From positions 168,702,001 through 168,766,000 of the forward strand of contig OZ024743.1 of NCBI GenBank assembly GCA_964016885.1: DNA of 64,000 nt, read 5' to 3'. Origin of the DNA: Eledone cirrhosa (taxonomy: Eukaryota). The position numbers and the translations under genes were made by a program. Within the stretch, counting starts at the first letter, position 1; each line of letters opens with the position of its first letter. Positions 3,263 to 59,156 of this stretch are shown one piece after another. The notes beneath the pieces are model-generated. The model was given only the letters and a program-made list of their open reading frames with translations, searched no databases and was not told the origin of the DNA.

Positions 3263-3462
3263 TCTGTCTTAAGACAGACTTTAGACTTAAGATATATATA
3301 TATATAAAAGAAATAAGATTTCGCTTCAAGCATAGCTTTATGCAAAATGTATAGAAATTTCGTATTTCTAAAGAAATACGGTTTTAGGAAGCCGTAGCTA
3401 TGCAAACACGGGGGGGGGGCTAACACCCTCTGATGGTGTCCAGCAGAAGCAAGGGGGATAAC

Positions 3463-3502
3463 CGTCTATGCATTTCAGGCTTGACTGGCCTTCGTCAGGA
3501 CG
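3463..3502 (-). ncRNA. Perfect minimal type I hammerhead ribozyme inside a long rod-like stem
   Basis: Minus: CGUC-CUGACGA-AGGC(cagucaa)GCCU-GAAA-UGC-AUA-GACG. Stem I is extended by GGGA/UCCC, GCAAG/CUUGC and GUCCAGCAG/CUGCUGGAC (3438-3531). Confidence 0.9.
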
Positions 3503-3549
3503 CTCCCTCCCACCGCTTGCGACTGCTGGACTTGAAAACAGCCGAGAAT

Positions 3550-3930
3550 ATACGAGAGTGCAAGGAAAGGAGAGGGAGAAAATTAATCGATACCAGGACT
3601 TAAAGTGGGAGGTAAAAAGGGTTTGGAACTGCCATGGAGTCAAGGTCTTCCCGATTGTCATAGGTGCACTAGGTACTATCTCAAAGTGTTTCCAAGGATG
3701 GTTAAAGAAGCCCCGAAGCCCCGCCTTATGGAACACATCCCAGTCCCGCTTTTTGGAACACTTCAAAAGGCTTACTTGCTGGGATCAGCAAGAATCCTCC
3801 GATACGTCCTGAATATCTGAGGCTGCAGGTAGCGGCTTGATATTCATTTCAACAAACTTTCCAGTTAAATAACATCAATGACTGAAACTCAAAGAATAAA
3901 AAGAATAATAATAATAATATTAATAATAAT
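3550..3930 (+). mobile_element. R4/Dong-like non-LTR retrotransposon 3' end (restriction-like endonuclease C-terminus, 3'UTR, TAA tail)
   Basis: EKINRYQDLKWEVKRVW..PIVIGALG..LLGSARILRYVLNI. Closely matches 56640-56970. Confidence 0.85.
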
Positions 3931-4118
3931 AATTGTTTCTACTTTACGCACAAGGCCAGCAATTACCCAGTGCATTACTGGTACTTTATTTTATCGACCC
4001 CGTAAGGATGAAAAGCAAAGTCAACCTCGGCGGGATTTGAACTCAGATCGTAAAGGGACGTAACTATGCTGGAAAGCATGGCGTCCGACCCTCTACCGAT
4101 ACTGCCAATCCATCGCCC
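3930..4118 (-). mobile_element. tRNA-derived SINE, family A
   Basis: Full-length match to the family consensus. Confidence 0.9.
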
Positions 4119-4124: not shown

Positions 4125-7100
4125 TAATAATGATTTCTTTATTAACCACAAGGGTTTCCATAAAGTAGACATTAAGGACAGTGCAGGACAATACAGTAAA
4201 AAACAAAAACAGAGGATGTAACAAAAAAATAACAATGAAAAATTCCCCAATAGGGGGGAGACTTCCGAGGGACATTCGTGGAGAAAGCCCATTAAAAAGC
4301 CACAATGACCCTGACCACCACGGCAAGTGCCCTCTCCCAGTTTTCCACCTTTAATTTACAGACACATACTCAGAGTAGGCCCATTCACTCGGGCCATTCT
4401 TGCCTCTCTCACCCATCTTTCAACAAAATGCTGGGAAGAGAGCACTTCCTTTTCTACCCTGATTTTTCTTTTCAAATGAAATTTGAAAAAGTTAATCAGG
4501 GCATCACCGAAGAGGTAAGTGCTCGTCTTCAGCCCTTTCAAACGTGTCCACCATACTATCTCTTTCGCCATGGCCACCAGACAGATAAAAACTGCCTGCC
4601 CTTCCCGGCTAAAGGAAGAGGGCGGGGCAATCCTCACGATGGACTCAGCTGATAGCCGGATCCGTCCTACGCGCGACAGCAGGTGTTCGACATAAACCCA
4701 TAATTCAGCAATGCTCGGACACTGGACGAGTGCGTGCAGGACGGTTTCGTCGCCCTGCGCGCATCTCGGACATCCCCGGCTGACGGCACCTCCATGCCTG
4801 TAGAGTTTATCCCGAACTGGCAAAGCTCCTCGGTAGCACTGCCAAGCCAGAGATTTCTGGAAGTTGTCCATAGGCCCCGGCCCGAAAGTTCTTCCGAAGA
4901 GATTGGCTAGTTGATTTTCGTCGACGCCTGGAGTTTCCCCAAGTACGTCGTCGCTCTTCCCCTCCACTAATCCTCTATAGAACGCCAAGGTGGAGTTAAC
5001 ACCGATCACATTGCCCGATTGGTCGGGAGCTGTGAGCGCCTGAAGAAATTCCAGTCTCCAAGCGCTCCCTCTCGGTCTTCGCTTGACCCAGGACTGCAAC
5101 TCCGTCAAGGAGACGAGCTGGTTGAAAGACGCATCTAGCAAACGGAGACCACACCAGATCACCGTCGAGGAAGAGGTGGAGATGTCGTAGCCTGAGCGCG
5201 TGTCTGCGCATCATCAGCCACGGCATTCCCAGCCCTCCACGTAGCGGGTATTGACAGCAGATTGACCGCCTGACCATCGGCGCGTCCCTTCCACAAAAAG
5301 CGAAAGAGCAAACGCTCCAGCGCAGTCAGGCGGGGCTTAGGACAAGGTACGACGGTCAGGCGGTAGTAGATGACAGACGCGATATACGCGTTAGCCACCA
5401 CCTCCGCTCGACCTTTCAGGGATAGCTTCCTCTCGGCCCATTTCTGGGTGAGAGAAGCCACCCTGCTCGTCACCTCGTCCCAGTTTTTGTTCGTCTGGAG
5501 ATCCGGACCGAACCAGACCCCGAGCAATTTAACTGTCCGTCCGTCAAGCGCCCGACGACGCTGTTGGACGGCATGGACCTACCTCTCCAGGTGCCGAGCT
5601 GCAGGCCCACTGACTTTCCCTGGTTGATCATTGCTCCTGTCACCGCTTCGTATTCTTAGTGTAGTGCCGATCGCCTCGACGTGTTTGGCGTTCGACACCA
5701 CTACGGTGACATCGTCCGCATATGCTGACACGGATCTTCCGCATCCTAGTTCGCGCGGGACCCCACTCAAAGTCTCCAATTTGTGCAGTAATGGCTCGAG
5801 AGTCAATACGCACAAGAGGGACGAGAGGGGACATCCTTGGCGGACCGAGCGCATGATGTTGAACGGTTCCGAAAGGTGACCTTTCACTCTCACCACAGAG
5901 CAGATGTCGTTGTGCATGGCAGCGATCCAGCCTCTGAAGACGGACCCAAAGCCAGCCGCCTTCAGGACTGCCGCAAGGTAACGATGGTCGACCCTATCGA
6001 AAGGTTTCGACTGATCTAAATTGATCATGGACCCATCCGTGCCAGGTTCTCTAGTTACCCTCTCTACGATGTATCGCATGAGGTGGAGAATGGCGCATGT
6101 CTGCGCCGCTCTCACCAGACCACCAACGACAAGCGCCAACCTCTTTGCTAGCACCTTGGCCAAAATCTTGAACTCTGTGTTTAGCAGAGCTATGGGCCTG
6201 ATATTATCTATGTTATCCCCCTTGTTCGGATCCTTTCTCAGCAGCGCCAGTTGCAGTTGCCAGTTGCAGTAGACGTCCGCCAAGAGGCCTCCGAACAAGT
6301 CTGGCATCTGTACGTAAAGTTCATAGGGAAGACCATGCAAACCAGGCGATTTACCCCTTGTATATCCAGTCGTTGCCTCCCGTACTTCAGCGGCTGTTAT
6401 CGGCTTTTCGCAACACTCCGCCTCAGTGGCTGAGAGCCGCGGCAGTCAGTCGATATAGACACTAAAGTCCATCCCTCGATCCGGCCCGCCGCTGACCCCG
6501 AACAGCTGAGCGAAGTGTCGCTGAAAAGCTTCACACATTTGCCCGGGATCGAGTAGCATTCGCCCGTCGGGGTCCACCAAAGACCGAATCATGGCTTTAT
6601 TGCCACGACGCGCCTCCGTCACTCGGGCCCATTGAACGGATTTCAACCACTCGTGTCTGAGAGCACGCTCCCTAGCTCTAACAACGCAGCCTTCGTGCTT
6701 TGCATTGAAGAATTGGTCAAGGGCCAATTTCGCCGCAAGTACGTCGGTCGCGATGCCTTTGCTAAGCGCCTCGTCTAACTTTCTAACTAGTTCTCCCTCT
6801 GCTCTGTTTTTCTCTATTGCTAAATCCTTACTAAACCTAATGGATTCTATTCTAATCCCTCTTTTCAGAGCAAAGCACCACTTGTTGTTGACGATGGCCC
6901 CCGTCAGCGCCCGCTTAACTGGTTCGCTAATCCGGTCTCTGTAGGCCTTGCGCGCTGGTAAGGACGCGTTCAGCTTCCAGTAGCCGGGTCCTCGTCTATG
7001 GAGCCTATCTAAGTCAAGCACACAGATCACGAATTTGTGGTCCGTGTAGCTGACTATCTTGAATTGAGCCTATGCTAGACCTATCTATTTCCCTACAAAA

Positions 7101-8465
7101 TACTCTATCTAGATATGATCTGGATGACCCTATGCGGTTTGTCCAAGTCCACATTGGCATATTCGGGAAATTCTATCGGTACCGGTCAGACAGTTCAAAA
7201 CGCCTGAGCAGGTTGGTGAGGCTCTTGCACCCTCCTCCCCTATCCACTAATCCCACACAGTCCCAGCGTGCATCTAATATCCTGTTCCAGTCGCCCACTA
7301 ACAGTAAATATCGGGACCTTCCAAGAAAGGTCTCCAGACGCCGGAAGAAATCAGGCCGCCCTGCTCCTGTCGGGGCATAGACGGCCACTAACCTGAAAGC
7401 TTGCCCGTCTCCGCTGGTCACATCCAGCACCAGCAACTTACCTTCTGGGTCCAGGAAGATGGCCCACATGGCGAGATCCAAACCTCTCTGAAAAAGCACA
7501 GCAATTCCTCCCTCCGATCCAGGACGGCTGGGAGATGCGTACACATCGCAGCCGCCGAAGATTGGTGCGAAGGCCCGTGCTTAGGAGATTCTGGTCTCGC
7601 TGATGGCCACCACATCTATGTTTAGCGACCTGAGATCGTTCAGCAGGTGGCCCTTTCTTCCAAGACGACCCCAGGCCACGTACATTTATGCTACCTATTC
7701 TGAGAATAGCCATGTTAGCTAGGATAGGAGGAAAACAAGTGAGAGGTGAGAGGTACAAAAAAATATTACCTGTGGCTCTTCTTTAGGAAGGGGGTGGGTG
7801 ATCCATTCCGACCATTGGTGGGTTTCTCCACGAGAATATCCGTGAATATTCTTTTGGTGATGTTCCCTCGGTAGTCTCCAATTGATGTGGGGAACATTTT
7901 TTATGTTATGTAATTTTTTTGTGTAATTTTTAATATTTTTATGTGTGTGGGGGGTGCAATGTTGGTGGTTTGTACGTAGTTTGTTTCAGTGATGTTGGTG
8001 TGGTGTTGAATGTAATTTAAAAGCTTTGTGTTGTCTGTGTCTATGGCTGTGTATTGTGTCTGCTGTTTGAGTGTTGTTGTTTTCTGTGTTTGCTGTCGTC
8101 TTGTTGGAGGTGACGATGGGGTAGATGGTAAGGGTGTTGTTGTTGTTGGTGGTGGTGGTGATGGTGTAGGTGGTTGTGGGTGTGTGGCTGTTGATGGTGA
8201 TGGAGGAAGTGGGGTAGTTTTAATTTTATTCTCTTTTAAGGTTCTTTCTTCCTCTTTATTTTTTTTTGGGAGGGGGGGGGGGGTAGTTCTTCCTTTGGGG
8301 GGGGGGGGTAGTTCTTCCTTTTTTTCGTTGGAATAGTTCTCCACTCTTCGGCCTCATCGCACTCTTTGTCCGATTTGGCTATATCAGGAAGGGGTATGCT
8401 ATCCATTGGTTTTGTGGTTGGTGGAAGAGATGGTGTTTTTGTTGTTGGGGATGGTGATTTCCCTT
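4125..8465 (-). mobile_element. Tx1/L1-clade LINE, decayed (ORF1 remnant, APE endonuclease, RT, C-terminal zinc region)
   Basis: Endonuclease SINVRGL..GDWN (7173-7758); RT RPIALLNTEFKILAK, DQSKPFDRVDH, QGCPLS, YADD (5579-6340); LSLKGR..FLW (5159-5527); CPRC..ETVLHALVQC (4356-5162). There are several frameshifts. Confidence 0.92.
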
Positions 8466-12166: not shown

Positions 12167-12837
12167 AATGCGATATTTCCCTGTTGTGTTAGTAAGGATT
12201 TAGTGCTGGATAAGTTAAACAGCTGTTCAAGGTTCTCAGTCAATTATCCTCTAATGAAAAAGAGGAAGGAAATTCTGACAGATCATAACACGTGATTGTT
12301 GGTAGTTAAATTCAGACAAAGGAATTCGCGCCAAAAACGACTATATGCATATGTGCATACATATATATATGCATATGCGCATACATACATATAAAAATGT
12401 TTACGTATATATACACGTATATATACACGCAAATAAAATCTGATTTCAGTCAAATATTCAACATTCAAAATTTAATTTTAGGTAATATATATATATATAT
12501 ATATATATATTACCTAAAATTAAATTTTGAATGTTGAATATATATATATATAGTTATGTAAGATAGTTATGTAAGATAATTATTTCATTTACCAGTGGTT
12601 TCTTGAAGGCAGATGTCATGTCTGTCTTCAGTCGTCAGACATAACATCTGCCTTCAAGAAACCACTGATAAATGAAATAATTATCTTATGTTGTTTAAGA
12701 CATAGCTAATAAGCTCTGTAGCCTACATAGAGCAATCTTTTATCCTATATATATATATATTTATATATATATATATAAGGAAAAAAGATGAAATCGAAAA
12801 TGCAACTGGAGTCTTTTTAAATAATATATATATATAT

Positions 12838-13200
12838 GAATGTAGGGTTAATACCAACAACCAAACCTTCACCTATATCGGAGCCATAGCTAATCAATTT
12901 AAGGAACGCTGGTACAATCACTGCCACACCTTTAGGAGAGTTGATAAGAAACACAGCACCACCCTCTCAGAACTGGTGTGGCGTCTCAAACATGATAACG
13001 TAGAATACACCTTGTCATGGTCCAAGGTAGCCTCATCCCAACACTACAGAGGGGGTGGACATGACTCACGCGTTTTCTGTGTAACCGAGATTATGAAAAT
13101 AATCAAGAAGGGTGCTCGAGTTATCAATGAAAGGAGTAACCTCTTCAGCACCTGCCTCCACAGATCATCTGGAACCTTCCTCAAACTGTACGGACTAACA
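12838..13200 (+). pseudogene. Penelope-like GIY-YIG endonuclease fragment
   Basis: CRVNTNNQTFTYIGAIANQFKERWYNH..STTLSELVWRLK..INERSNLFSTCLH. Confidence 0.8.
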
Positions 13201-14686
13201 ACATGGTTCTATTAGTTGACTATTGCAAACTTGACCGTGGAAGCCGGGCGAGGCCACACAACAACTCGAGCGTCATGCGAACCTTGGATATCTTGATTGC
13301 ACACCTGGTGTCTCTGTGTATACATGTTTCATGTCCCTTGTTCCCCCATTCTCTATTTATATACCTACTGTTGTTTTTTTTATGTATTTTTGTCCCGTTC
13401 TTTTATTATTGTCTTCTCGATTTGTTATCTGCTTGTTGCTGTCCCTACTTTCGCTTCCCGTAACTCTCTTCCATAGTGTAAAAGCCCTTTTAATAGTATT
13501 GTTCCCACTGTGGTTAAAACTGAATGATATTGTGGTTAACCGTTTTTTTTCTGCACTGTATTTATTGCTAGCCTTGTGCCTTAGAATGATAGAGAGGAAT
13601 GTATTAACTGTGCATGTATTTATTTATATATATAAATACCCATCTATATTTCTATCCCATTTTCGCTTCCTTGTTTCAACGGACTACTATTGTGGTTAGT
13701 TTATTTTTCATGGAAGCGTGGCCTGTTCCTGTTGCCGCCCTCACCGTTGTGGGATCATCACTGGTGCTGTTATTGTTGTTCGTGTTTCCAATGGGCTTGA
13801 TACCACCTCTACTACGACGAACGGGATAGGTGATGGGCGGTGTTAATGTTTGTTGCCGTTACCATTGTTGTTGTTGCTATATATGGTCATGGTGATTGAT
13901 ACCACCAATTTTGTGTACCTACCTACCTCAAACTCTTTTTTATTGCTTTGGTGTTATCGCTGTTATTGTCGACAGGGTGATACCGTCACTACGACTGCTA
14001 CGGCCTGTGTACACGGCGCTGGTCTGTGGTTTTGTTGTTGTTGTCGTTGTTGTTGTTGTAAGTGTTTACTGTAGCTGTTGCTTTCGTTGTTATTGTCAGT
14101 GGGGGTAGCAATATCACTACGACTATTGCGGCCAGTGTGGACGATATTGGTCGGCGGTTTGCTGTTATTGTTGTTATTGTAGTTGTCGTTGTCGTTGTTG
14201 TTGTTGTTGTAGCTGTTGTCTATAGGTGGTTGTCAAAAAAATATACACCCTCAGGGCTCCATTTATTGCTTCCACTGTCTACTGGGGTTTGGCTACACAC
14301 AGTTTTTCGTTATTTTTGTGTTTTATTCGTTGATAGATTTTTCTAGCAAACACGACAGCTGGCAAACCCTTCAAGGAAATCATGTGTCTGCTGGGCACAC
14401 AAGCAAGAGGACGTGTGTTTTTCCTGCCAGTGACATATCAAAAATATCGGTTTTTCATCTGAGGATACCGTTCTCATAACCAACAGCAAATGCATGAAGG
14501 ACATTTCGATTGCATGGAGAACCGTGGGAATAATTATAATGATTAAACGATATATGTAACCGCAGCACCTTATTTTGTTATTTTTATAAAATTCTCCATC
14601 GTAACTAAAAATAACGATTGTTGAGAGCTTTCTCGTTCTTACTCCAGTTTTTACCAAATAAATCTTTTCCGAGCACAATATATAAA

Positions 14687-18790: not shown

Positions 18791-21700
18791 CCTCATCCCC
18801 CTCGGCTTCCGCCTACACCCCCCCCCCCCCCCGCTTCCCCCTCCACCCAACGTAACCTCACCCGATCCTCGCGCCTCCTAATGCGCAACTCCATCCGCAC
18901 CTCCCGCTCCACAATCCGCAAACTTGACTACCAACTGACCCCCACCCTCCTCCGCCTTAAGCCTTAACTCCACCTGCCACCCCCTCCTTGCCCACGCCAT
19001 CCTCATCTTCATCCAAAACCTCAACCACGACCTCTTCTCCTTCCTCACCTCCACCAAAGCCCGTAAGCTACACCCACTCGTCCCAACCACCCCCATCCAC
19101 CACCACCCGCCCATCCTATAAGCCCCCCCCCCATCCCACCCATCCCCACCGCTCTCCACCCCTCCCTCTACCCACATCCCTACCCAATCTCCACCCTCCA
19201 CCTCACCCCTCACGAAACCCTCCCTTCCTCCCTCACACACCCAAACCCCACCACTTGTTGTCACCATACCCCCGTGACCTCCCCCTCTCCGCACCTGAGC
19301 GCTCACTCCTTAGTAGAGGTCTTCGCTTTATACCCCACACTCCGCACAGCGACGAGTTCCGCACCCGAACGGAAGTCGAGCGATTCGTGCGACGCACGAA
19401 GCTACAGGCACATTTCGGTCAAACGCCACCGGCTCCGAACGCCTCAGACCCGTCTATCGCCCTGGGCCGACGACCATCTTCTTGGACGCCGGCCCCAGGG
19501 CAATTTAGCATCCTGCATCGTTCGTCAATGCCACCCGTAGCGCCGTAAATCGTTTCGACTTCCGCCACCGTTCCAAACGGAATAACATCTCACGGGGCGA
19601 ACTCCTAGCTCTCCGCTCCCTCCGTAACCGAGATGACATCGTCATCAAAGCGGCGGACAAGGGAGGCGCCGTGGTGGTGTGGGGCGCGGACCTCTACACG
19701 GCCGAAGCCCTCAGGCAGCTCCGTAACCCCCTCTACCCTCCGATCCCACACCCCTCTACCAACAAGTTTCCTCCACCATCCAACACCTTGTCTCCTCCTC
19801 CCTCCTCCCTCCCCCACCGCTTCCCACCTCATCGTCCGCACCCCCCGCACCCCCTATATCTACTTCCTCTCCAAACTCCACAAACCCGACAACCCCCGCC
19901 GCCCCATCGTCTCCGCTTGCAACTGCCCCACCGAACTCATCTCCGCCTTTCTTGATTCCATCCTCGCCCCCCTTGCCACCAGCCTCCCCTCCCACATCTC
20001 CGACACCAACCACGCCCTGCGCCTTTTCGACTCCTTCACCTACCCACCCGGCCCACAGCCCTTCCTCTTCACCCTAGATATCAAGTCCCTCTATACCGTC
20101 ATCACCCACGCCGTCATCCCCGACGAGCTACGTGCCCTCAAGCACTACGTCGACCTTCGCCCCTCCCCCATCCCCTCCACCCCCACCCTCATTCGCCTCG
20201 CCGAGCTGGTCCTCACCCTCAACTGTTTCTCCTTCTAGGGTGAGTTTAACCAACAGGTCACGGGGGTAGCCATGGGTACAAGAATGGGCCCAAACTATGC
20301 CAACCTTTTTGTTGGCCATATTGAGGCCCAAATCCTTGCCCAGTACACCGGCCCCACGCCCGAACTGTACGGTCGTTACATCGACGACTGTATCGGAGCC
20401 ACGACCCTCACCCGAGAACAGCTCGACTCCTTTCTCTCCTTCTTCTGCTCCTTCCACCCCTCCCTCCACTTCACCACCTCTATCTCCACCACCCACGTCC
20501 ACTTCTTAGACATCTCCGTCGCCTTCGACCCATCCCACCACTCCCTCGTCACCTCCGCCTTCTTCAAACCCACCGACTCCCACTCCTACCTCGACTTCAC
20601 CTCTTCCTACCCTACACAAACTAAACACTCTATTCCCTACTCCCAACTCCTCAGGATCCGCCGCCTCTGTAGCCGAGATGCTGACTTTGAGTCCCAGGCC
20701 CTTTCCCTAGTCAGCCATTTCATCCGCAGAGGTTACCCCACTCTCTCGTCCACACCGCTCTCACCCGCGCCCGTGCTGTCCACCGCTCCACCACCCTCAC
20801 CCCACGCCACTGCACACTCACCCACCGTCTCCCCTTCCCCATCACCTACCACCCTTCTACCATACCCCTCCACCGCACCATGCTCCGCCTCTTCCGACGC
20901 CTCCAGTCTGACCCCTCCACCTCCCACATCTTCCCAGCCCCACCACTCCGCTCCTTCAATCGCGCACGCAATCTCCGCATCCTCTTCGTCCACAGCTCCC
21001 TACCCCCCAACCCACGCTCTCCGTCCACCCCCGGTTCCCTTCCCTGTTCCAGGCCCCGCTGCAACACCTATCCCCACATCAGCAACACCACCACCTTCCA
21101 GGGTCCCAACGGCCACTCTCTCTCTGTCCGGCATGCCTTCCGCTGCACCTCCTCCAACCTAGTCTACGGACTTCGCTGCACGGAGTGCAACGCAACCTAC
21201 GTCAGACAGACTGGACGTCGCCTGGCGGACCGGTTTACCGAACACCTCCGAGATATTCGTCTCGGTGGTAGTTGCCCCATCGCCCGCCACTTTGGTGCCC
21301 CTGGACATTCCGCACACCACCTCACAGTCTGTGGCCTACTCCAATGCCACGGAACACCCACCACTCTCCTCAGGGTCGAACAACGAACCATCTTCACCCT
21401 ACAGACCCACACTCACCCCGGCCTGAACTCCCCACCCTTATTCCTTTAGCTTTCGACCGCCCCCCTCCCCCCATACATATCCCCCACTAACACCACTTCC
21501 CCCTCCTTTTCACCGCCCACCCCACAACTAACAATACTAACACCTCCACCCCATACCTGACCACCCTTTCCCAACTAACATATAAACATCCCTCCCTTCT
21601 GCCCCCCCCTTTCACGCGCACACACCCACCGGTACATATATACAGGCGCTCACACTAAACACACACCCTACTACCACCACTAACCCTCACCCCCACACAT

Positions 21701-36066: not shown

Positions 36067-36530
36067 TGTGTGTGTGCGCGCACGCGGACGTGTGTGTGTG
36101 TATTAGATGATTCAGTATATTTGTCGTTTAGTGAGGAAGGTATCAATATTAGTACTCAAGACTATATCAGAGTGTATATATTAAGAACAAAAGCACAAAC
36201 CCTCCATCTAAATTTTAACTTTGAAAATCATAAGAACTGTGAAACCGGTAAAGTAAATAAATAAATATTCTTAAAAGACTCCAGTTGCATTATAAATTTA
36301 TTTTCCTTATATATATATATATATATATATTATGTAGATAAATCTACCAAGAGTTTACGGTAGTGTCCAATCCGTATGAAGAACTCAATGTATTCCGGAT
36401 ATCATGGAAAGAAGAGATGTAATGAAAAATCACTTTCGGTGAAAGATAAACGGTATACAGAGTCAAGATAAAATATTAAACAAATAATGAATAAAACAAT
36501 GAAACAGTTCCTTATATTAAACAAAAAAAG

Positions 36531-36685
36531 TTCATTATTTAACGATCGTTTCTAGGATATATATGTGTTAGAATTGGCATGCATATTCAACAGATCTATG
36601 TACAAAATTATACAAAATTATACAAACTATCAAGATTAAATATACATACCAAACACACATATACGCCGTCTTCAGAAATAATGAA
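36531..36685 (-). ncRNA. Hammerhead with 116-nt stem II domain (left arm copy)
   Basis: Reverse complement of 41342-41496. Confidence 0.8.
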
Positions 36686-37320
36686 ATATATTTATTGATA
36701 ATAACAACAATTCAAAATTTCAGGTCCGTTTGGGAACAAAATTGACCAATGAAAATACAAAAGGTTTTATGCAGTTTGGCGTGTGTATATACATGTAACT
36801 ACCCCGTATACATATTTATACAAAGATGTATGCTCAACATGCATACGCATGCCAAAAAGATGCATGCAAATACAAAATTTCAAGGTTAATGTCTCTGTAA
36901 GTTTATAATGCACAGATAAGATGCGTATAGACACATAAATATGAAATAAGTGTATACACATATTCTCATACTCACACATATCCGTACACTCACACACACG
37001 CGCGCGTATATGCATAAACATACACATAATTACGAACATACATACACACACACACCCCCACACACATATATATATGTGGATATAATATTATCATAAGCAC
37101 ATGGATATTAGTTCACTCACATAAACACTGCCACACACATTTAGATCAAGATACAGAAATTAGGTGGGAGGGGGGGAGAGGTCAGTATTCAACGGTTTGG
37201 GCAGACTGCTTATTTATAGATGTATCTATAAACTAAGAAATAAAAAATAAAAATTAAAAAGGAAAGAAAAGAAAAAGAAAAAAGAAAAAAGAAATATATC
37301 AAGAAAATATATATATATAC

Positions 37321-37375
<55 letters not shown>

Positions 37376-37455
37376 CACACATCTACACTTAGAACACACA
37401 TACACACACATATATAAACATATACATATACACACATACACACACATACATATAA

Positions 37456-37488
<33 letters not shown>

Positions 37489-38174
37489 TACACATATAAA
37501 CACACAGTGTGCTCAAGAGAGCCACCCCTTATCAAAATAATAGAAATGAATGTAGATTATGTTCCCAAGAACTATTTGAAATAATGAAATCTAAGGATAT
37601 CCTATTAAATAAACGACAGGAATTAATTATATCGTGTAATCATAAACTAAAAAAAACATTTAAATATTATAAACCTAATTAATAACATTATTTTAGAAAT
37701 TAATTTAATTTAAATGTTAGTTAACCTATAAATTTAATTTAATTAAAATTCTACTACAGATGTGAATATAAAATATTGTGTAATCATAAATTGTGAAAAA
37801 CCTTTAAATATTACTAATATATACTTAGTAATTTAATTCATAGATTAATTTTAATTTATTTAAACCTTTTATTAAAATTCCTTTACAGATAAAATATAAC
37901 AAAATATCGTGTATCCAATGACAGAGAAATAATTTTTAGTATTATAGACCTAATTAATATACATTTTAGAAATATATTTATAATTTGGTTTTAAATTTAG
38001 TCAACCTAAAAATTTAATTTAATTGGCTTAAAATTAGTATCCTTATACAGACGGATTGCAGAGTGTCATGTAATCATAGAATGGGATGTGTTTTGGATGT
38101 ATACCTAGTTAATATATTCTTTGCAATTTTTGAAAAAATATGTATATGTATGTATGTATATGTATGTGTATGTA

Positions 38175-40250: not shown

Positions 40251-40526
40251 GTATCTCTATTTGTATGTGTATATGTGTATAGGTATATACCTTTTTCTTT
40301 GTATGTCTGAGTTGTGTGAGAGTGTAGTGGTGTTTGTATGTATATACCGATATATGGATGCGTAAGTATTTGTGTGTATGTATGTATGTATGTCTGTATG
40401 TATTTGTGTGTATATATAGGTATGTATGTGTATATCTGTATGTATATAAGTATGTATGTGTATGTATATGTGCGTGTATGTGTATATATATGTGTGTCTA
40501 TATATGTATGTGTGATTATATGTGTA

Positions 40527-40559
<33 letters not shown>

Positions 40560-40647
40560 TTATATGTATGTGTGTATATGTGTGTATGTGTGTATATGTA
40601 TATGTTTATATATGTGTGTGTATGTGTGTTCTAAGTGTAGATGTGTG

Positions 40648-40715
<68 letters not shown>

Positions 40716-41341
40716 TATATTTTCTTGATATATTTCTTTTTTCTTTTTTCTTTTTCTTTTCTTTCCTTTTTAATTTTTATTTTTTATTTCTTAGTTTATA
40801 GATACATCTATAAATAAGCAGTCTGCCCAAACCGTTGAATACTGACCTCTCCCCCCCTCCCACCTAATTTCTGTATCTTGATCTAAATGTGTGTGGCAGT
40901 GTTTATGTGAGTGAATTAATATCCATGTGCTTATGATAATATTATATCCACATATATATATGTGTGTGGGGGTGTGTGTGTGTATGTATGTTCGTAATTA
41001 TGTGTATGTTTATGCATATACGCGCGCGTGTGTGTGAGTGTACGGATATGTGTGAGTATGAGAATATGTGTATACACTTATTTCATATTTATGTGTCTAT
41101 ACGCATCTTATCTGTGCATTATAAACTTACAGAGACATTAACCTTGAAATTTTGTATTTGCATGCATCTTTTTGGCATGCGTATGCATGTTGAGCATACA
41201 TCTTTGTATAAATATGTATACGGGGTAGTTACATGTATATACACACGCCAAACTGCATAAAACCTTTTGTATTTTCATTGGTCAATTTTGTTCCCAAACG
41301 GACCTGAAATTTTGAATTGTTGTTATTATCAATAAATATAT

Positions 41342-41496
41342 TTCATTATTTCTGAAGACGGCGTATATGTGTGTTTGGTATGTATATTTAATCTTGATAG
41401 TTTGTATAATTTTGTATAATTTTGTACATAGATCTGTTGAATATGCATGCCAATTCTAACACATATATATCCTAGAAACGATCGTTAAATAATGAA
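41342..41496 (+). ncRNA. Hammerhead with 116-nt stem II domain (right arm copy)
   Basis: TTCATTATTT-CTGAAGA-cggcgTATATGTGT..ACACATATAtatccta-GAAAC-GATC-GTT-AAATAATGAA. Stem I is a perfect 10 bp and stem III is the palindrome ACGATCGT. Confidence 0.8.
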
Positions 41497-41550
41497 CTTT
41501 TTTTGTTTAATATAAGGAACTGTTTCATTGTTTTATTCATTATTTGTTTA

Positions 41551-41667
<117 letters not shown>

Positions 41668-43337: not shown

Positions 43338-46300
43338 TGCCTCGACGAGGAAGAAAGAAAACATCTGGTTGGTCTATCGATAGTGGAAAGAAAGCACGGC
43401 TAAGGTGAGCAAGATACTTGTCAACGTCAACAAGATCGGGACAGGCATGCAAATAGAAGGATCGATAAAGCAAGGGCTACGCGTCTGGCGAAACAGAGGG
43501 AAAGAGACAGAAGCAGGAGAGATCATGAATCGGATGCTCGGAGAGCTGCACGTCTGGCGGAACAGAGGGAAAGAGACAGAAGCAGGAGAGATCATGAATC
43601 GGATGCTCGGAGAGCTGAGCGTCAGGCGGAACAGAGGGAAAGAGACAGAAGGAGAGATACCGAATCGAACGCTCGGAGAACTGAACGTCTTTGCCAACAA
43701 ACCATTAGGGATAGAGCAAGGACAGTTCAACGACGTGACCTCTCTGCTGATGTTGGACAGATGAATAAGATCTGTATCTGTTGTCATGCAATGCTTTTTC
43801 ATGATGAAACTGCTAACTTTTGCTGTATGAATGGAAAAGCCAGGTTGGGGAATCTGCAGCCTTTACCCCAGGAACTTCACAGTTTATTTAGTACTGATCA
43901 ATCTAGGGCAAACGAGTTCAGGAAGAACCTCAGACAATACAACTGCCTGTTCCAAATGACATATTTTGGAGCCGAAGAAGTTCGTTCCTCGTTATTCATG
44001 GTCAAATTCACCATTACATCGGTTCCTTAACCCCTAATCCCAACGAACAACCCCAATTTCTTCAAATTTACTTCTTGGATCCTCAGGATAGTGTTGATTT
44101 GAGGATCAGGGTACTCCATAACGATGGCATTCAGCGCGACATAGTTGAATTATTGGAAATAATACTCAGACAATATAACCCTTACGTTGCTTCATTTCGA
44201 ATACCAAAAGAACAAATTAAAAATATTCCCGAAGCTTCGATTATTATTGATCCTGATAGGAGACCAGCAATGGAACATGAAAGATTCAATGCACAAACTG
44301 CAAACGAAGTTGCCGTTATTATACAAAACAGCACCGAACTTCAAGCAAAAGCACGGCATATTGTGTTGAAAGAAAAAGGCGGACAATTGCAAATAATCTC
44401 AGAGTCCCATCGGTCCTATGACAGTTTGCAGTATGTTCTATTTTTTCCTTTTGGCGATGACGGATGGCATCATGAGCTGTTAATGAGAAACAACAAGAAG
44501 TTGACGCCAATGCGTTACTATGCCTATCGAATAATGAACTATGAGAATGAATTCAACCAACTTCTCAGAGGCGGTCGTTTATTTCAGCAATATTTGATTG
44601 ACATGGCTGCGAAGATTGAAGGAGATAGACTGCAATACATCCGAATGAATCAAACATCATTGCGATCTACAACATACAAGGGCCTTACTGACGCATTGAA
44701 TGATGATGATGATTTTCGCAATATTGGCAGGCGAATCATACTCTCTTCCACATTTGTCGGTGGTCCGAAATATATGATGGAGCGATGCCAGGATACCATG
44801 ATGTACATACGGAATTACGGCAATCCTTCGTTCTTCATCATAATGACATGCAATGAAAACTAGCCCGAAATCCGGCAAAACCTATTCCTGAATCAGAAGC
44901 CACATGACAGGCCAGATTTAATTGCCAGAGTATTTGACCTGAAGCGGAAACTATTAAGAAAGTATCTTACTGGAGAAGATGGCCTATTTGGCAAGTGCAT
45001 TGCAGTCGAATATCAAAAGTGAGGTCTTCCTCATGTGCACTGTTTGCTAGGGCTCAATGAAGCCTCCAAGCTCAGACCGCAGGAATATGATAAATTTGTT
45101 CAAGCCGAAATACCAGATCCAAACAAAGATCCAGAGGGTCAGGAATTGGTGCTGAAGCACATGATCCACGGTCCGAATTGCTATGACAATTCGCCGTGTT
45201 AGAAAGATGGAACGTGCAGTGAGCGGTACCCTAAGCCTTTCAATGAATATACATTGTGTGGAGAGGACTCTTATCCTGTGTACAGAAGACGGTCTCCCGG
45301 AATGGGAGGATTTGAGGGGCACCAGGAAGGAAGGGGAAGCCGAAATATAACTTCGGAATGGATGGTTCCCTATAATATGAAACTATTAAAACTGTTCAAC
45401 TGCCACCTAAACGTAGAGATGTGCTCTTCCGTGAAATCGATCAAATACGTTATCAAATATACCATGAAGGACAGTGATCAGTCAATGTTTGGAAGATATA
45501 TCGGTCCTTCAGAAGGTGTTGCCTTGGTACTTGGATTTTCAATTCATGAGAGAGAACCGGCCCAAGTTCATCTACCTGAGGAAAATCAAATCTTTCGGGT
45601 CAATGCTGCTGTTAAAGTAAACAATAACATGGCTAAGACGACTCTGACTGAGTTATGGATCTTTGCGATCGCGATCCGTTTGCAAAAACATTGTATTATG
45701 CCGATGTGCCAAAGTTTTACACTTGGAGTAATAAGAGATGGGAAAGGAGAAAGGTGGGGAAAACAGTTGAGCAGTGTCCAGGGATTTTTGAGGCGAAAGA
45801 TTTGGGACGAGTATACACTGTTTCTCCACGAAATGGTGATCTGTATTATTTAAGACTCCTTCTGCATCACGTCAAAGGGCCAGTATCCTTCAACTCTTTG
45901 AAAATGTGTGATGGAGAACTCCTTCCATTATTCAAAGACCTCTGCAGAGAGAAAGGTTTGCTTCAATCGGATGATCATTGGCAGCAGACTCTGGAAGATG
46001 CTGAGCGAATAAGGCTTCCCAAAGCCATGAGAGATCTATTCATCGTGCTCCTCACAAATACGAAAATTGACAATTCCAGTGCTTTAATTGCCTTCGCTGT
46101 CTGAGGATTACCTTCAAATAGAAAAAAGGGCTACCAGAAACTCTAACCTTTTGATTAGCGAGAGACATTATGATCAATGTCTTCTGTATTTCGAAGACAA
46201 ACTTAACGACATGGGCAAAAGTCTTAGTGACTTTAACTTGCTAAGGCCAAATAATATTGTTGCTAATCAGGATGTTGGCAATTTGGAGTTATTGTATGAA

Positions 46301-47707
46301 TTGCAATACAGCAGAGAAGAGCAGCGACGATTTGTAGAAGAGACGGAGCCTCTATTGAATAGTGAACAAAACCCGTGTACGACTTCGTTTGTAACAGTTT
46401 AGAGACGAACACATCTGCATTGATTTTCTTTGACGCTCCAGGTGGAACAGGAAAGACATTCCTGATTAACTTAATTCTTTCAAAAGTCAGGGGAAACAGC
46501 GACGTAGCTATTGCTGTTGCGTCATCTGGCATTGCCGCAACACTGATGCCTGGTGGAAGAACAGCGCATTCTAGGTTCAAAATAGCGATAGTAGTGAAAG
46601 AAAATGGTCTGTGCAACATTGATAAAAACTCAAAGACGACAAACCTCTTCCAGCATACAAGGCTGATTATTTGGGATGAGTGTCCTATGATTCGGAGGGA
46701 AAGCTTCGAAGCTGTTGACCTCACTCTGCGTGACATATGCGACAACAATGAGGCATTCGGTGGAATTTTTTACAATTTGCTGTGGCGATTTCCGTCAGCT
46801 TCTTCCGGTAGTGATAAGGGGAAATGAAACGGACGTGGAAAACGCCTACATTAAAAAATCCTACTTATGGAGAAGCTTCAAAAGATTTCAGTTGAAGACA
46901 AACATGTGATTGGGCGGGGGAGCAGGAGACTATTCACAGTTCCTATAGGATATTGGAGAAGATAAGATAAATAAAACTGAAAATTAGGTAATTATTTTAC
47001 CAAAAGAAATGGTTCTCCAAGTAACATCTGAGGAAGAATATATTGATTTCATCTACTCCTCATTCGACAATCCAGCTGAAGTGTTTTCGAACAATTGCAT
47101 CTTAGTACCTCTCAATGAAATGACGAGAAGCATCAATTCCACCTGTATCAGACGCTTCCCTGGAACCATAAAAGAGTACCGATCCTATAATTCTGTGAGT
47201 GATGGTGCCAATGTCACTCATTTCCCCACTGAATTCCTTGATTCGGTTGAACTATCAGGACTGCCCCCATATAACCTGGAATTGAAAAAAGGATCGTCAA
47301 TAATTCTTATGAGAAACTTGAATCCTCCAAGGTTTTGTAATGGAACGCGCATGATCGTGGAAGAACTACACGACAATCTCATAGTAGCAAGAACCAACAC
47401 TGCTGCTTTCAGAAACGAGATCGTTATGATACCTAGAATAAGAATGAATCTATTCGAAGGTGAGGATATCACTTTGCAGCGAAGCCAATTCCCAGTTCAA
47501 CCGCGATTCGCTATGACTATTCATAAAGCACAAGGACAAACTATGGAAAACGTCTTGGTTTATCTGGAACGACGTGTATTCCAACACGGTCAACAGCATG
47601 TAGCCCTTAGCCGCGGAAAACGAAAAGAAAATGTCAGAGTGTTTCTGAAGGATACCCAGTCAACTAAGAATGTTGTCATCAAAAGCATTCTTTTGAACAA
47701 ACTGTAA
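43338..47707 (+). pseudogene. Helitron Rep/PIF1-helicase (RepHel) with stops and frameshifts
   Basis: Cys motif CICCHA..CCMNGK; YDSLQYVLFFPFG; GRLFQQY; Rep motifs FIIMTCN, VEYQK*GLPHVH, KYVIKY; helicase GGTGKT, IIWDE, GDFRQLLPV, FAMTIHKAQGQT, VALSR. Confidence 0.95.
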
Positions 47708-52439: not shown

Positions 52440-54700
52440 TTGATTTTGTTTTAAATCTGTTAATAAATAGCTTTTCTTTATTCTTTGTTGTTGAGTGAAA
52501 GAATCGGGGCACTTGTAAAGGGAGAAGATTTTTTAAAGTTCCTAAATATGGCTACTTAAGAGGATGTTTCTTGTGTTTACGTCTCGGATTTACTGGCGAT
52601 GGATGGTGATTCTTTTGCGTAATGACACACCCGTCTGTCCTATGTAGTTGTGTCGACAGCCACTGCATGTGATTACGTAGATCAGGTTCTCTTAGTTGGA
52701 AATGAAGGGGTTTTTCACTGTAAAAGTTTGGTCATCTTTAAACGTGAATTTTTGTCCTTCAATTAAGTATAGGCATGTGCCACAGTTTGTTCTTCCGCAT
52801 TTTGTTACCGTAATATTGGAGATTGTTTTTATATATTTGTTCCAGTGAGAATGTGTTTTAGTGATTTGGGTTGCCTTTTACATTTAATGATTTTGTGTGT
52901 TTCTAAGATGTTTTCATTTTTTCATCTTTAAGTAGAATGGGGAGGTATTTGTGTAGGAGGTCAAACATTTCGGTAGTTCTGGGGTTGAACAGGGATACAT
53001 AAGGTAAGATGTAGTTTGTGGTTCTGTGCTTTGGGTTGTTGGGTTGAAGAAAATTTGCGTGTTTTGCTCTGTCTATTCCGTTATTAATTATGTCAAGTGG
53101 GAAGGCTCTTAAGGTAAGTGTGTTTTTTAGTTCATTTAGTCTTTGTTCCCGTTCAACTGGGTTTGATACTAAGATGCATATACGTTAGGCTAAATTAAAA
53201 GGAATGTTAAGTTTTGTATGTTTTGGGGGATTTGATGAGTTCGTAATGTTTAGAGTCCGTGGGTTTATAAATGATGTTTGTTTCTATTTTTCCATCTGTT
53301 TTTAAAAGAATATCCAAGAAGGCTAATTCCTTGGAGATGAATTCCACTGTGAATTGTATGTTATTGTTAATGTTATTTATCATATTTTTTAAAAGAGTGA
53401 GTGTATCCATGTCTTCCTGCCATAGTATAAAGCAATCGTCTAAGTATCTCTTCCAATTAATTTTGAGATGTGTAAGGAAAGAGTCTCCGAATAATAGAAG
53501 GGATTGGTTGTAGATTTGTTGTTCGTAGAATCCCATGACTAAGTTGGTATATGTTGGGCTACCTTTGTGCCCATTGCATTACGTGAGATTTGTCGGTATG
53601 TTCATTGAAAGTAAAAAAAAAATATTCTGTAAAATAAATCGGAGTCCATCAATAATAAAGATTTTGTTGATGTGTTTGTTATTTCAGATTGGTCAGTGTC
53701 TAGCCAAAACTGGATTGCTGTTATTCCATAGTTATGGGGCATATTAGTGCAAAGGTTTCCTATGTCAAAGGAGACAAGAATGTTTTCACTTACTGTTTTG
53801 GGTAGGTGGTTCAGCATATCAAGGTCATCCTGTATATAGCTCTGTATATGTTTTAGTAAGTGCTTTAGTAGGATGAAGATGCTAAGTCTGTGGGTTTCAC
53901 ACGCAGGGCCTGCTATAATTGGTCTGAGTTTTAAGACTTCTGGTGGTGTTAATTGTATGTATTTTTTAGTCGCAGTGTCACATGCATCTTTTATGAGTTT
54001 ACACATTTTCGGTAAGTCGTAGGAAGCACTTGTATTATATTTGAAATGGTTTATGTATTCAAATTCTTTTGTGGTTATGCTATTGCGATGTTTTTGTAGT
54101 AATGCTAGGAGATTCCCCATTGTTTTAGTTTGTTTGTAGTTTTCGGTTTTTTCGTAGTACTTGTCGTCTAAGATTTTAAGTGCCAGGTCCCTATAGTAGT
54201 CAGTGAACATAATAACCACAGTACACCTTTTATCGGCTTCTTTGGTGGTTATTTCAGTGTTATCTCGAAGAGTGAGTAATTTTTTCCATTCATGTTTAGA
54301 GAAGTTCAATTTTATGTGTTTATTTGCAATTTGTTCATAGGGAAGTTGATGGTGCATTCGCAGTAGGTGTCTTGTGCTGTGTTCCTTCCTTTCTGTGGGC
54401 AGAAATCGCTTTTGTTTCTGACTATTGATTCGTCTTCAGTGTTGGTGTCATTGGAGAAGTATTTTCTTAGTCTAAGTTTTCGACAGAATTCTAAGATGTC
54501 ATCTTTCATTTCGGGGGAGTTAGATTTTTGTGGTGTGGGTGTAAATTTCAGTCCCTTACTTAATATGTTAATTTGTGTGTTAGTTAGTGATATCTTTGGA
54601 AGGTTAATTATCTTCGGTTTCTCATGAGTGGGAGCCATAGGGTGTCCGGGTATTTCAGTCTTGTTCCTAAAAAAGGAATGTTGTTTTCGTTGTAATTGTA
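52440..54700 (-). mobile_element. Penelope-like element, decayed RT plus GIY-YIG
   Basis: LSKGLKFTPTP; EADKRCTVVI; LRPIIAGP; SFDIGNLCTN; WKRYLDD; YKPTD; remnant YVITCSGC..YIGQTG (52620-52680). Confidence 0.9.
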
Positions 54701-54883
54701 GTCTGCTTGTCTGTTTTGTAGGTGTTTATAGTTCGCTTTTTCATGAGAGTTAATGTGGTGAAGGGGTTGGTATCTGTTGTAGTTGTTATTGTGTAAGAGT
54801 TATGTTATGGCTTCAGGTGGTCTAGTTGGGTACTTTCTGGGATGCATAGTGTTGATGAAGGAAATCATCAGGGAGGTCATGTC

Positions 54884-54930
54884 TTTCCTGATGATTTCCT
54901 TCGAATGAAACAGTTCCAGTCCTGTAGAAG
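54884..54930 (+). ncRNA. Type I hammerhead with a 4-bp stem III
   Basis: TTTC-CTGATGA-tTTCcttcGAAt-GAA-ACAG(ttccagtc)CTGT-A-GAAG. Relatives lie at 62111-62228 and 26379-26440. Confidence 0.7.
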
Positions 54931-55046
54931 CCATTTCTATATTAAATATTTATACTCTGCTATGTATCGTGTACCTTACTTAGTGTGGTTAGCCCCGATT
55001 GAACCCGGGATACATACACACACACACATACACAAACTCACACACA

Positions 55047-55861: not shown

Positions 55862-55864
55862 ATG

Positions 55865-56970
55865 GGGTGGAGCTGAACAAAAAGATATGGATAGGAAGAC
55901 TAGAAAGCTATTGACTATCTACAACATGTTCCACAAGAGGAGTGATGTCGATAGACTCTACTTAAAGAGATCTGAAGGTGGAAGAGGTCTTATCAGCATA
56001 TAGGACTGTGATCAGATGGAGAAAAACAACCTACACAAATACGTGACTGATAGTAGGGAGCCAATGCTCAGAATTGTACTGAAGGAAAGGAAATAGACCA
56101 GGGGATGTCCAAGGAGGAAATAACAACATGGAGGAAGAGCAACCTTCATGAACAATCCCTTCATAGTACTTTCTTTGAGAAAACTGAATTTAGAGATGCA
56201 CAGACATGGAACTGGTTAAAAAGAGGAGACCTTAAAAAGGCTACAGAAGGAATGCTAATGGCTGCACAAGAGCAAGCCCACAGAACGAAGTGGGTGAAAC
56301 ACCATATTTACATGGAGGAAGCTAGCCCACAGTGTACGATCTGTGGAGAGAGAGAGGAGACTGTGGCTCACATTGTATCCGAGTGTAAACACCTAGCCCA
56401 GACTCACTATAAAGGCTGGAGACATGATGTGATGGGCAGGGTGATCCACTGGCACCTATGCAAATTAAACAATTTACCACATTCTGAGAAGTGGTATGAG
56501 CATAAGCCAGAGTCGGTGATAGAAAACGATCAGGTGAAGGTGCTATGGGATTTTAGGATACAGACGGAACACAATAGGCCTGACCTGGTGGTTTTGGACA
56601 AGGAAAAAAGAACGTGCCTGATTGTAGATGTAGCCTTCCCATTTGACACGAGAGTGCAAGAAAAGGAGAGGAAGAAAATTAACCGATACCAGTTCTTAAA
56701 TTGGGAGGTAAAAAGGATTTGGAACTGCCATGAAGTCAGATTCGTCCCGATTGTCATAGGCGCACTAGGTACTATCTCAAAGAGTTTCCAAGGATGGTCA
56801 AAGAAAATTAGTCCAGCCCCGCTTTTTGGAACACTTGAAAAGGCATGCTTGCTGGGAACAGCAAGAACCGTCCGATACGTCCTGAATATCTGAGGCTGCA
56901 GGTAGCGGCTTGATATTCATTTCAACAAACTTTCCAGTTAAATAACATCAATGACTGAGACTCAAAGAAC

Positions 56971-57032
<62 letters not shown>
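55865..57032 (+). mobile_element. R4/Dong-like non-LTR retrotransposon, 5'-truncated, with (TAA)n tail
   Basis: DRKTRKLL..DVDRLYLKRSEGGRGL; CCHC knuckle CTICG..ETVAHIVSEC; RHD; nuclease RPDLV..D..KINRY (ORF 56105-56893). Confidence 0.9.
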
Positions 57033-57034
<2 letters not shown>

Positions 57035-57700
57035 TTTTCATTTATTGGTCACAAGCGCCGACATAGAGAGGACAATACAATAGACGGGGACAGTGGAGGT
57101 TTTACAAAAAAATCGAGAAAACAATATAAAGACAATAACAATGAATAAGAAAAATAAAATACAACAATGAAAAGTCCTGAATAAGAGAGAAAACCACACA
57201 GGGGCGACTCAGATACCCCTCTTCGAGAGCACCCGGAAAGTGCACCACTCTCGTCCTCAAATCAATCAGCCTACAGGCGCATGTTCAGATTAGGCCAATA
57301 ATATAGGCTTGCAATATCCACCCACATTTTAGCAAACGTACTGGAGGCAGCATTTCTCTCCCCACCCTCACCTTCCTTTCCAAGTGAAACTTGAAAAAGT
57401 TGATGAAGCATTGGTTAAAGAGAAAAAGTATCTGCCTTCAGTCTTTTCAACCTACTCCACCACACAACCTCTTTTGCTACTGCCACCAAACAGGAAAGCT
57501 GCCTGTTCCAACTGGTGAAATAATGGCGGAGGGGCGATCTTTACTATGGACTCGGCCGATAGCCAGATAACATACATGCGATAACAGCTCTACGACATAA
57601 TTCCACAAGTCAGTAATGCACGGATCCTGGACAAGTGCGTGTAGAACGGTTTCGTCGCTCTGCGCGCATCTCTGGCAGGGCCAAATGACAGCACCTCGTC
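57033..57700 (-). mobile_element. 3' fragment of a Tx1/L1-clade LINE related to 4125-4800
   Basis: Minus: CQRCAQSDETVLHALVQ..IWLSAES..FINFFKFHL..KVRV. Confidence 0.8.
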
Positions 57701-57945: not shown

Positions 57946-58011
<66 letters not shown>

Positions 58012-58042
58012 AGTGTAATTTACTACACAAAACGAAGGTTAT

Positions 58043-58555: not shown

Positions 58556-58604
<49 letters not shown>

Positions 58605-59156
58605 CACACATGCATACACACACACATACATATACATACACACATACACACACACATATATGCACATACACACACATATATATACACACATACACATATA
58701 TACATACACATACATCCAGATACACATACATACACACACACACACACATATATATATATGTGTAAATACACATATATACACACATATTCATACACATATA
58801 TATACACACACCCACACATACATACACGTGTATACATGTATATGTGTATATATGTGTATAACACGTGTACACATATATACACATACACGTGTATACATGT
58901 GTATGTGTATATATGTGTGTGTGTGTTTGTATGTGTGTATGTATATATACACACACACATATATATATACATACACACATACAAACACACACACACATAT
59001 ATACACATACACACACATATATATATACACACACACACATATATATATATACACATACGCATACATCCAGATACACACATACATACACACACACACACAC
59101 ACAATACATACATCCACATGCACACACATGTGCATGAGCGTATGTATGCGTATGTG

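Follow-up and report, generated by a model that had tools for sequence, protein, structure and literature searches.

Ribozymes are found in retroelements (PMC6765202). Non-LTR retrozymes are repeats of 150-450 bp with a G+C content below 50%, which are expressed as circles and are thought to be moved by Penelope-like elements (PLEs) (PMC7229834). Solo monomers are common among them, and make up from 0 to 100% of a retrozyme family (10.64898/2026.07.22.740005). The canonical metazoan type I hammerhead has helices of 6, 4 and 1-2 bp and a palindromic loop, and cleaves well mainly as a dimer; the minimal hammerhead of Schistosoma PLEs has a helix II of 7-8 bp and an extra unpaired base (both described in PMC4209133). 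The pLTR layout is given in 10.1101/2021.04.23.441226, and cleavage of, and insertion into, AT-rich DNA has been reported for PLEs (PMC11167929). Dong belongs to the R4 lineage, and the assay of its 5' junction used a TAA-repeat leader; Dong and R4 are cut at this junction by HDV-like ribozymes (PMC3774820). Finally, a viroid-like RNA is recognised as symmetric by having a ribozyme in each of its polarities (10.1101/2022.07.19.500677).

We analysed a window of 64,000 nucleotides from Eledone cirrhosa (contig OZ024743.1, positions 168,702,001 to 168,766,000 of the forward strand; coordinates below are those of the window), in which a hammerhead abuts a LINE fragment. Our preferred reading, which we hold to be probable though well short of certain, is that an abundant hammerhead repeat of the non-LTR retrozyme type, to all appearance non-coding, has left a truncated and somewhat decayed copy at 3300-3552, and that this copy came to lie beside a 5'-truncated Dong-type LINE by separate insertions.

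As described in PMC7229834 and 10.64898/2026.07.22.740005, the non-LTR retrozymes of coral, mussel and axolotl resemble this repeat in their type I hammerhead with a weak, palindromic helix III. They also share with it high copy, a G+C content below 50% (46% here) and self-paired RNA; their length of 150-450 bp (350-390 in mussel) fits a repeat unit of at least ~310 nt, PLEs are present in the same genome, and solo copies are known. They differ in their tandem arrays and circles, whereas the window copy is single, truncated, abuts a LINE and has a degenerate core on the opposite strand; the comparison is one of features. The hammerheads of PLE pLTRs (PMC4209133) are, like the focal one, of type I, with a dimer-type helix III and at AT-rich sites. 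However, the focal hammerhead has a helix II of 4 bp, no extra unpaired base and a long GC-rich extension of helix I, and no PLE open reading frame (ORF) is attached to it in the window. In common with Dong of Bombyx and R4 of Ascaris, the LINE piece at this locus encodes a restriction-like endonuclease at the C-terminus and ends in an (AAT)n tail, and its relatives are flanked by (AAT)n. The 5' ribozyme of Dong and R4 is HDV-like and in sense orientation, whereas the hammerhead here is antisense and lies outside the element (PMC3774820 for Dong and R4). Symmetric viroid-like circular RNAs and the carnation retroviroid-like element offer a possible parallel for hammerheads of two polarities on one rod (10.1101/2022.07.19.500677), although here the second core is degenerate in most copies, its helix I is unsupported, and the sequence is a genomic repeat of an animal.

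A type I hammerhead on a GC-rich rod

The hammerhead occupies 3461-3504 of the minus strand and is of type I. Its core elements, CUGACGA at 3498-3492 and GAAA at 3476-3473, agree with the conserved core CUGANGA / GAAA / UH. In the window copy helix I consists of 4 bp (CGUC 3502-3499 with GACG 3466-3463) and helix II of 4 bp closed by a 7-nt loop (AGGC 3491-3488 with GCCU 3480-3477). Helix III has 2 bp and is formed by a palindrome at 3473-3468 (UGCA then UA), two copies of which pair at -6.7 kcal/mol. The cut is predicted after 3467, at the triplet AUA. On the same strand helix I extends into a rod of 94 nt (3438-3531) with a G+C content of 60%, versus 36% for the window. Its fold reaches -41.6 kcal/mol (z -3.44), a value equalled by 4 of 1000 shuffles, and keeping the hammerhead core open within the rod costs 1.1 kcal/mol. 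A wider fold of 181 nt around the rod is insignificant (z -0.43). Internal loops in helix I are present together with the 7-nt loop II. Sequence reading and folding bear out the first-pass annotation of this DNA in its description of the motif: every hammerhead element that it listed is found at its minus-strand place, including the cut after 3467, and so is the GC-rich rod.

A strict hammerhead descriptor gave no match in 200 block-shuffled windows, and a loose one gave 7 sites in the window versus 0.13 per shuffled window. Rfam had no match to the focal hammerhead, either at the gathering score or with E relaxed to 10, and it missed the other hammerheads of the window too. Pattern scans of viral, metagenome and prokaryote collections yielded 0 matches in each. 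Judged on its sequence and predicted fold, the focal hammerhead is a real motif of the canonical metazoan type I shape, and its RNA is predicted to be self-cleaving.

The hammerhead segment belongs to an abundant repeat family

Public reads from four of six listed runs were aligned to 3300-3885 at 82% likeness; two of the four (X1 and X2) are one sample. No RNA run is among those listed, which carries no information on expression. The runs may stem from other individuals, and the best of them contain only 44-56% of the sampled words. The details given below come from the 24 of 1,512 loose ends, 15 of 100 joints, 40 of 180 variant rows and 16 of 13,912 read pieces that were listed.

Summed X1 contig depth is 55,116-187,406 across 3300-3539 and reaches 1,118,857 across the LINE; it is just 20 in the bin 3720-3739, which holds an insertion private to the window copy. 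Depth over the hammerhead segment is thus thousands-fold above that of the private bin. Although depth is no copy number, these values point to two abundant families, the hammerhead repeat and the LINE. The reads also contain many variant contigs of the hammerhead repeat, which is therefore multi-copy in the genome.

The two families part at 3552. There, contigs of the hammerhead repeat enter one common non-LINE sequence (70 contigs in X1 with an agreement of 0.83, and 81 in X2 with 0.79), and LINE copies extend upstream into LINE coding DNA (30 and 27 contigs; 5,759 and 10,329 reads). At the other side, left of 3302, the hammerhead repeat extends further in 29 X1 contigs, as a loose end. Since the family continues beyond both 3302 and 3552, the repeat unit, in the minus orientation, must be at least ~310 nt long.

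Position 3503 breaks helix I in the window copy. The majority base at this position (95% of X1 depth and 96% of X2 depth; 384 of 404 and 366 of 385 in reads) restores a helix I of 6 bp, and the resulting 6/4/2 bp shape is the canonical metazoan one as given in PMC4209133. A variant in helix II, at 3489, accounts for less than 1% of X1 depth and for half of the reads in X4 and X5 (10 and 7 starts). With a broken pair in helix I and no partner copy, the window copy is predicted to be probably a poor cutter. It had been called pristine, with an extent of 3410-3550. Neither description holds: the copy differs from the X1 majority at no fewer than 9 sites in 3300-3552 among the 40 of 180 variant rows listed, 3503 being one of them, and the repeat spans ~3300-3552 and goes further beyond both ends in other copies.

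At its left end the repeat copy merges, at a TATA motif of the family, into a (TA)n tract (3293..3305), and both ends of the copy coincide with TATA motifs. A run of ten G (3410..3419, plus strand) is longer than in many copies, with deletions of 3-5 bases at 3409-3417 in reads and contigs. Within the same repeat, 3330..3403 is predicted to form an AT-rich branched structure with a closing helix and three hairpins; the predicted fold of 3318-3410 has z -3.51 on the plus strand and -2.59 on the minus strand. Over the whole ~250-nt segment, z is -1.70 for the minus strand (11 of 200 shuffles as good) and -3.69 for the plus strand (0 of 200), versus +2.0 and +0.1 for a LINE control. The downstream loose end pairs with 3532-3552 into a hairpin that the junction cuts (-13.0 kcal/mol, 53 of 2000 shuffles), and no significant pairing was seen for the upstream loose end (435 and 160 of 2000 shuffles).

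The window contains a single copy of the hammerhead repeat by self-BLAST, and the loose-end motifs are absent from it at up to 3 mismatches. The loose ends overlap by no more than 2 letters, and no joint returning within 3300-3552 was present among the 15 of 100 joints listed. Because a tandem layout was not seen, we file the repeat only as retrozyme-like. Two open frames overlap the hammerhead segment, which has no match to 93 LINE proteins, nor to the window by tblastx.

The adjoining LINE fragment

Immediately to the right lies, on the plus strand, the 5'-truncated 3' end of an R4/Dong-type LINE (3552..3933). It encodes the last 80-100 codons of the restriction-like endonuclease (3552 to ~3817), followed by the 3' UTR and an (AAT)n tail at 3895-3933. 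It is 86% identical to 56648-57006, which is part of a second, longer 5'-truncated copy of the same LINE (55863..57033, plus strand) that ends in an (AAT)21 tail and has no hammerhead segment at its 5' side. Using the protein of this longer copy, we found 93 relatives. In 93 of 93, the match to the fragment begins at 3552, 3555 or 3558, and none lies to the left at E <1e-5. The reported direct join of the rod's segment to an endonuclease fragment at ~3550 is thus placed at 3552, where the LINE starts.

The relatives have single ORFs of up to ~1,100-1,300 aa with a reverse transcriptase (RT) and a C-terminal endonuclease. The R4/Dong-type label rests on the domains, an RT with a C-terminal zinc knuckle and restriction-like endonuclease, and on the TAA-repeat target, while named R4/Dong proteins are absent among the relatives returned and cluster look-ups yielded no names. 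The best solved structures related to the LINE protein are R2 proteins (E 5e-44). Among near-full-length relatives, 14 of 27 have (AAT)n directly upstream, and of the 41 relative loci with enough DNA on the downstream side, 24 have it there; such flanks fit Dong, given the TAA-repeat leader of its assay.

The LINE fragment differs from the X1 majority at 17 sites or more among the variant rows listed. An insertion near 3710-3745, shared by almost no contigs or reads, resembles a local duplication. In the reads, LINE copies restart at 3552, 3585, 3626, 3638, 3649 and 3660 behind the tail of another copy, so short 3' LINE pieces are routine. The Dong-type piece is such a routine 5'-truncated insertion, of another high-copy family.

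The 5' ends of LINE relatives

One proposal of the first-pass annotation was that the segment is the inverted 5' UTR of this LINE family, which would then use a hammerhead. The adjacency of the two sequences invites it, and the depth of the segment, several-fold below that of the LINE 3' end, is what would be seen for a 5' end. We looked at the 5' regions of relatives. A metagenome scan using an alignment of 31 relatives gave 79 loci (260,784 bases) with 27 5' regions. The loci are distant, with 34-59% best-segment identity to P0001, and the closest full-length relatives (60-66% protein identity) are left out of the DNA compared, which leaves the proposal some room.

No compact hammerhead was found in the 79 loci over 260,784 bases, using a descriptor that finds the hammerhead of the window; of the 4 loose candidates that it returned, 3 fall within the ORF and the other lies outside the element. 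Compared with the 27 5' regions, the hammerhead segment shows no likeness: its best score is 43, the null reaches 41.4 at best, and 42 of 100 shuffles do as well, whereas related 5' regions score 140-166 against one another. Of these 27 regions, 14 show (AAT)n directly upstream, and 17 share another hairpin, on the sense strand. Rfam gave no ribozyme match in the 20 of 79 loci that were scanned. An HDV-like descriptor matched 0 of 27 5' regions and nothing in the segment, a result which is uninformative, as this descriptor had no positive control. By eye, the plus strand near 3430-3460 resembled the 5' end of the L001 locus, a likeness that failed shuffling.

Further points against an inverted 5' UTR come from the other copies of the repeat, which in the loose ends listed leave 3552 into non-LINE sequence, and from the HDV-like ribozymes with which Dong and R4 cut their 5' junction (PMC3774820). 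The topology of the motif also matters: a type I hammerhead would remain on the 5' cleavage product and be lost to the LINE RNA, so it could not travel at the head of the element. The inverted part, moreover, has no LINE coding sequence; twin priming would give such sequence there. Overall, we consider it extremely improbable that the segment is a 5' UTR of this LINE.

The sense-strand hairpin motif of the 17 relatives was seen nowhere else in the loci or the window. It belongs to a conserved, structured stretch of ~75 nt that directly follows (AAT)n. A 7-bp helix starts at its first G and is accompanied by a 4-bp hairpin with an 8-nt loop; by eye, there is also a pseudoknot, and the helices change between the L016 and L005 types. 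Carriers are L004 (650-725), L016 (52-125), L019, L020, L021, L025 (70-135), L027, L028, L030 and L033, with a related form in L001 (98-125) and L005. The motif has no match in Rfam, where the 5' end of L025 gave chance-level matches only. It is a candidate 5' self-cleaving RNA of Dong-like relatives, not mappable onto the HDV fold. Between it and the ORF start, a short hairpin motif with a covarying stem occurs in up to about five repeats (L016 at 115-340, L023, L030).

The junction and the insertion nest

At 3552 a single A fits both the repeat and the LINE, and loose ends occur to the left and to the right of it. The window does not contain either of the missing half-sites: the repeat has no continuation in it, and the upstream part of the LINE is not beside 3552. 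No target-site duplication was found at the junction, nor one spanning the repeat and LINE pair. On these grounds a simple insertion alone does not explain the junction.

It could be that the LINE reverse transcriptase jumped from LINE RNA to repeat RNA during one insertion, producing a one-off chimera. This would account for the direct abutment with one shared base and for the remainder of neither element being in the window, and negative-polarity retrozyme RNAs are mentioned in PMC7761336. Yet the RNA to which the enzyme jumped would need to be antisense to the working hammerhead, the pair is not bracketed by a target-site duplication, and several elements that end in TA/TAA repeats are nested at this site. 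We regard such a chimera as quite improbable. The original suggestion of an independent retrozyme captured by template switching therefore survives in its first half, an independent hammerhead repeat of the retrozyme type; its second half is unproven, and we hold separate insertion or rearrangement to be likelier than template switching, since a switch calls for the antisense RNA as template and only one base is common to both sides of the junction.

Another reading would be an assembly artefact between two repeats. No piece bridges 3552 among the 16 of 13,912 listed, and even the best runs hold only about half of the sampled words. Against this, private changes are found in each of the two parts, which is what a real old locus would show; in addition, the pieces listed are too few to prove absence, and the runs may be from other individuals. 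We give an artefact very little credence.

The order of the nest is a (TA)n-ended short repeat, the hammerhead repeat, the LINE, its AAT tail, a short repeat and an L1-like element. The short interspersed repeat within the AAT tail (3916..4112, plus strand) has many copies in the window by self-BLAST and is taken by inference to be a SINE. The broken L1/Tx1-like element (4356-7580, minus strand) shows an endonuclease-like frame and an RT (Pfam RVT_1, E 2.5e-20), and a related 3' piece at 57319-57697 lies right behind the second Dong-type copy. Elsewhere in the window we noted broken Rep/helicase frames at 43384-47707 (plus strand) with a 69-bp tandem repeat at their start, which we take from their motifs to be Helitron-like. 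There are also two foldback-like inverted repeats with microsatellite-rich cores, 36468-37506 / 40509-41559 (98.6% over 1051 nt) and 57954-58888 / 59202-60129 (88.7% over 957 nt). ARAGORN found no tRNA.

Penelope-like remnants and other hammerhead sites

The segment might itself be the pLTR or UTR of an autonomous PLE, independent of the LINE, with its ORF beyond the truncation points. PLE pLTRs carry type I hammerheads, some with a small palindromic helix III (PMC4209133), the repeat family extends past both ends of 3300-3552, and PLE insertion into AT-rich DNA has been reported (PMC11167929). The window also has PLE-like remnants with hammerheads. The first of them is GIY-YIG-like (12706..13215, plus strand, score 0.94-0.95) and has a hammerhead-core site beside it at 12638 on the minus strand; GIY-YIG appears on 11% of one cluster for this remnant, which makes it a lead only. 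The second is Penelope-like (19509..21449, plus strand, score 0.96, HTH_animal clusters), with a hammerhead-like site downstream at 22917. A Pfam scan gave no match to the PLE-like remnants of the window. Thus the earlier statement that no PLE is evident nearby is right in that none abuts the hammerhead, but it overlooks the remnants at 12.7 kb and 19.5-21.4 kb and 14 hammerhead-core sites.

Those 14 sites were returned by a relaxed scan of the window and include some chance matches; none is like the focal one in sequence. Hammerhead-like sites other than the focal one lie at 927(-), 1094(+), 1688(-), 2470(-), 12638(-), 15417(+), 22917(+), 23521(-), 54888(+), 62166(-) and 62172(+). By sequence they fall into three or more groups. 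Their neighbours are often (TA)n tracts or PLE-like remnants; the foot of helix II is mismatched in many of them, and two have C at core position 4. Additional Penelope-like remnants are present on the minus strand at 53207-54950 and 60916-62330, adjoined by inverted hammerhead-bearing pieces; their assignment to PLEs is our presumption from motifs.

In blastn and tblastx comparisons, the focal repeat resembles none of the window's PLE remnants. Its 6/4/2 shape is canonical and is not the Schistosoma PLE minimal type (PMC4209133), the long helix II and the unpaired base after A9 both being absent, although other shapes occur in some PLEs. Structure runs through all of the 250 nt, and a hairpin is carried on by the downstream loose end. 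No ORF with RT and GIY-YIG adjoins the repeat in the window, while the continuation of other copies is visible for 30 letters only. We regard the pLTR reading as unlikely, though it retains some weight, and we prefer a non-LTR retrozyme-type repeat.

A possible hammerhead frame on the opposite strand

On the plus strand the rod is framed, at its 5' foot, by a degenerate CUGANGA-like 7-mer (3430..3436, with one mismatch here, at position 9) and, at its 3' foot, by GAAA (3534..3537), which in other copies is followed by a hairpin and GUA. Both were noticed post hoc. Their order matches that of a hammerhead having the rod as helix II. Among 1035 strong helices of the window, this rod is the only one with both a core-like 7-mer and GAAA at its feet; such framing is expected 0.15 times over all helices and with a probability of 6e-5 to 6e-4 for a given rod.

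This could mean that the repeat descends from a viroid-like RNA with ribozymes in both polarities, the rod serving as helix I of the minus hammerhead and helix II of the plus one, a descent compatible with a retrozyme-type repeat. The uniqueness of the rod and the hairpin and GUA after GAAA would fit this, as would a U-U at the foot of helix II that is also present in other window hammerheads, and a plus strand that folds better than the minus. The core, however, is degenerate: 99% of X1 depth has G at position 6 and just 55% has A at position 9, and changes at position 6 reduce activity (PMC3088659). The plus-strand helix I is unsupported as well (-6.8 kcal/mol, versus a shuffled mean of -9.5; 1689 of 2000 shuffles pair better), there is an extra U before GAAA, and helix III needs a bulge. 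An intact ribozyme was hence not found in both polarities, the plus-strand core being degenerate in the window and in 99% of X1 depth. A viroid-like descent of the repeat appears very doubtful to us. There is likewise only a slight chance that the opposite-strand frame is a real second ribozyme, working or ancestral. An equally faint prospect is that a viroid-like circle, bearing two nested hammerheads of opposite polarity on one rod, became fixed in the genome and gave rise to this high-copy repeat, some subfamily of which still cuts both strands. In the literature listings and passages covered, we found no report of a two-polarity animal retrozyme.

Discussion

The motif, the high copy state, the separate continuations at 3552 and the boundaries come directly from the data. 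For the tandem source arrays, cleavage, the circles, the mobilising enzyme and the order of events, we infer the following scheme. Minus-strand transcripts of source copies would cleave themselves after AUA and, with only a 2-bp palindrome for helix III, would most likely do so as dimers. By the mechanism known from the literature, a host ligase would then circularise the unit-length RNA, and a Penelope-like reverse transcriptase/endonuclease, acting in trans, would write it back into AT-rich DNA. Separate insertions of the repeat and of the LINE into the same TA/TAA-rich nest would have joined the two, the continuation of the repeat being lost. Separate insertions with local loss are the simplest account of their meeting.

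The hammerhead thus belongs to its own repeat family of a known kind and only touches a broken retrotransposon, which makes the locus mostly ordinary. The claim of a hammerhead used by an R4/Dong LINE falls with this finding, which also adds one retrozyme-like family, probably in a lineage for which we found no published case. If the opposite-strand frame were a working or ancestral second ribozyme, it would link animal retrozymes to symmetric viroid-like replicons; and were both strands indeed cleaved, the RNA could copy itself from RNA to RNA in an animal and also be retrotransposed.
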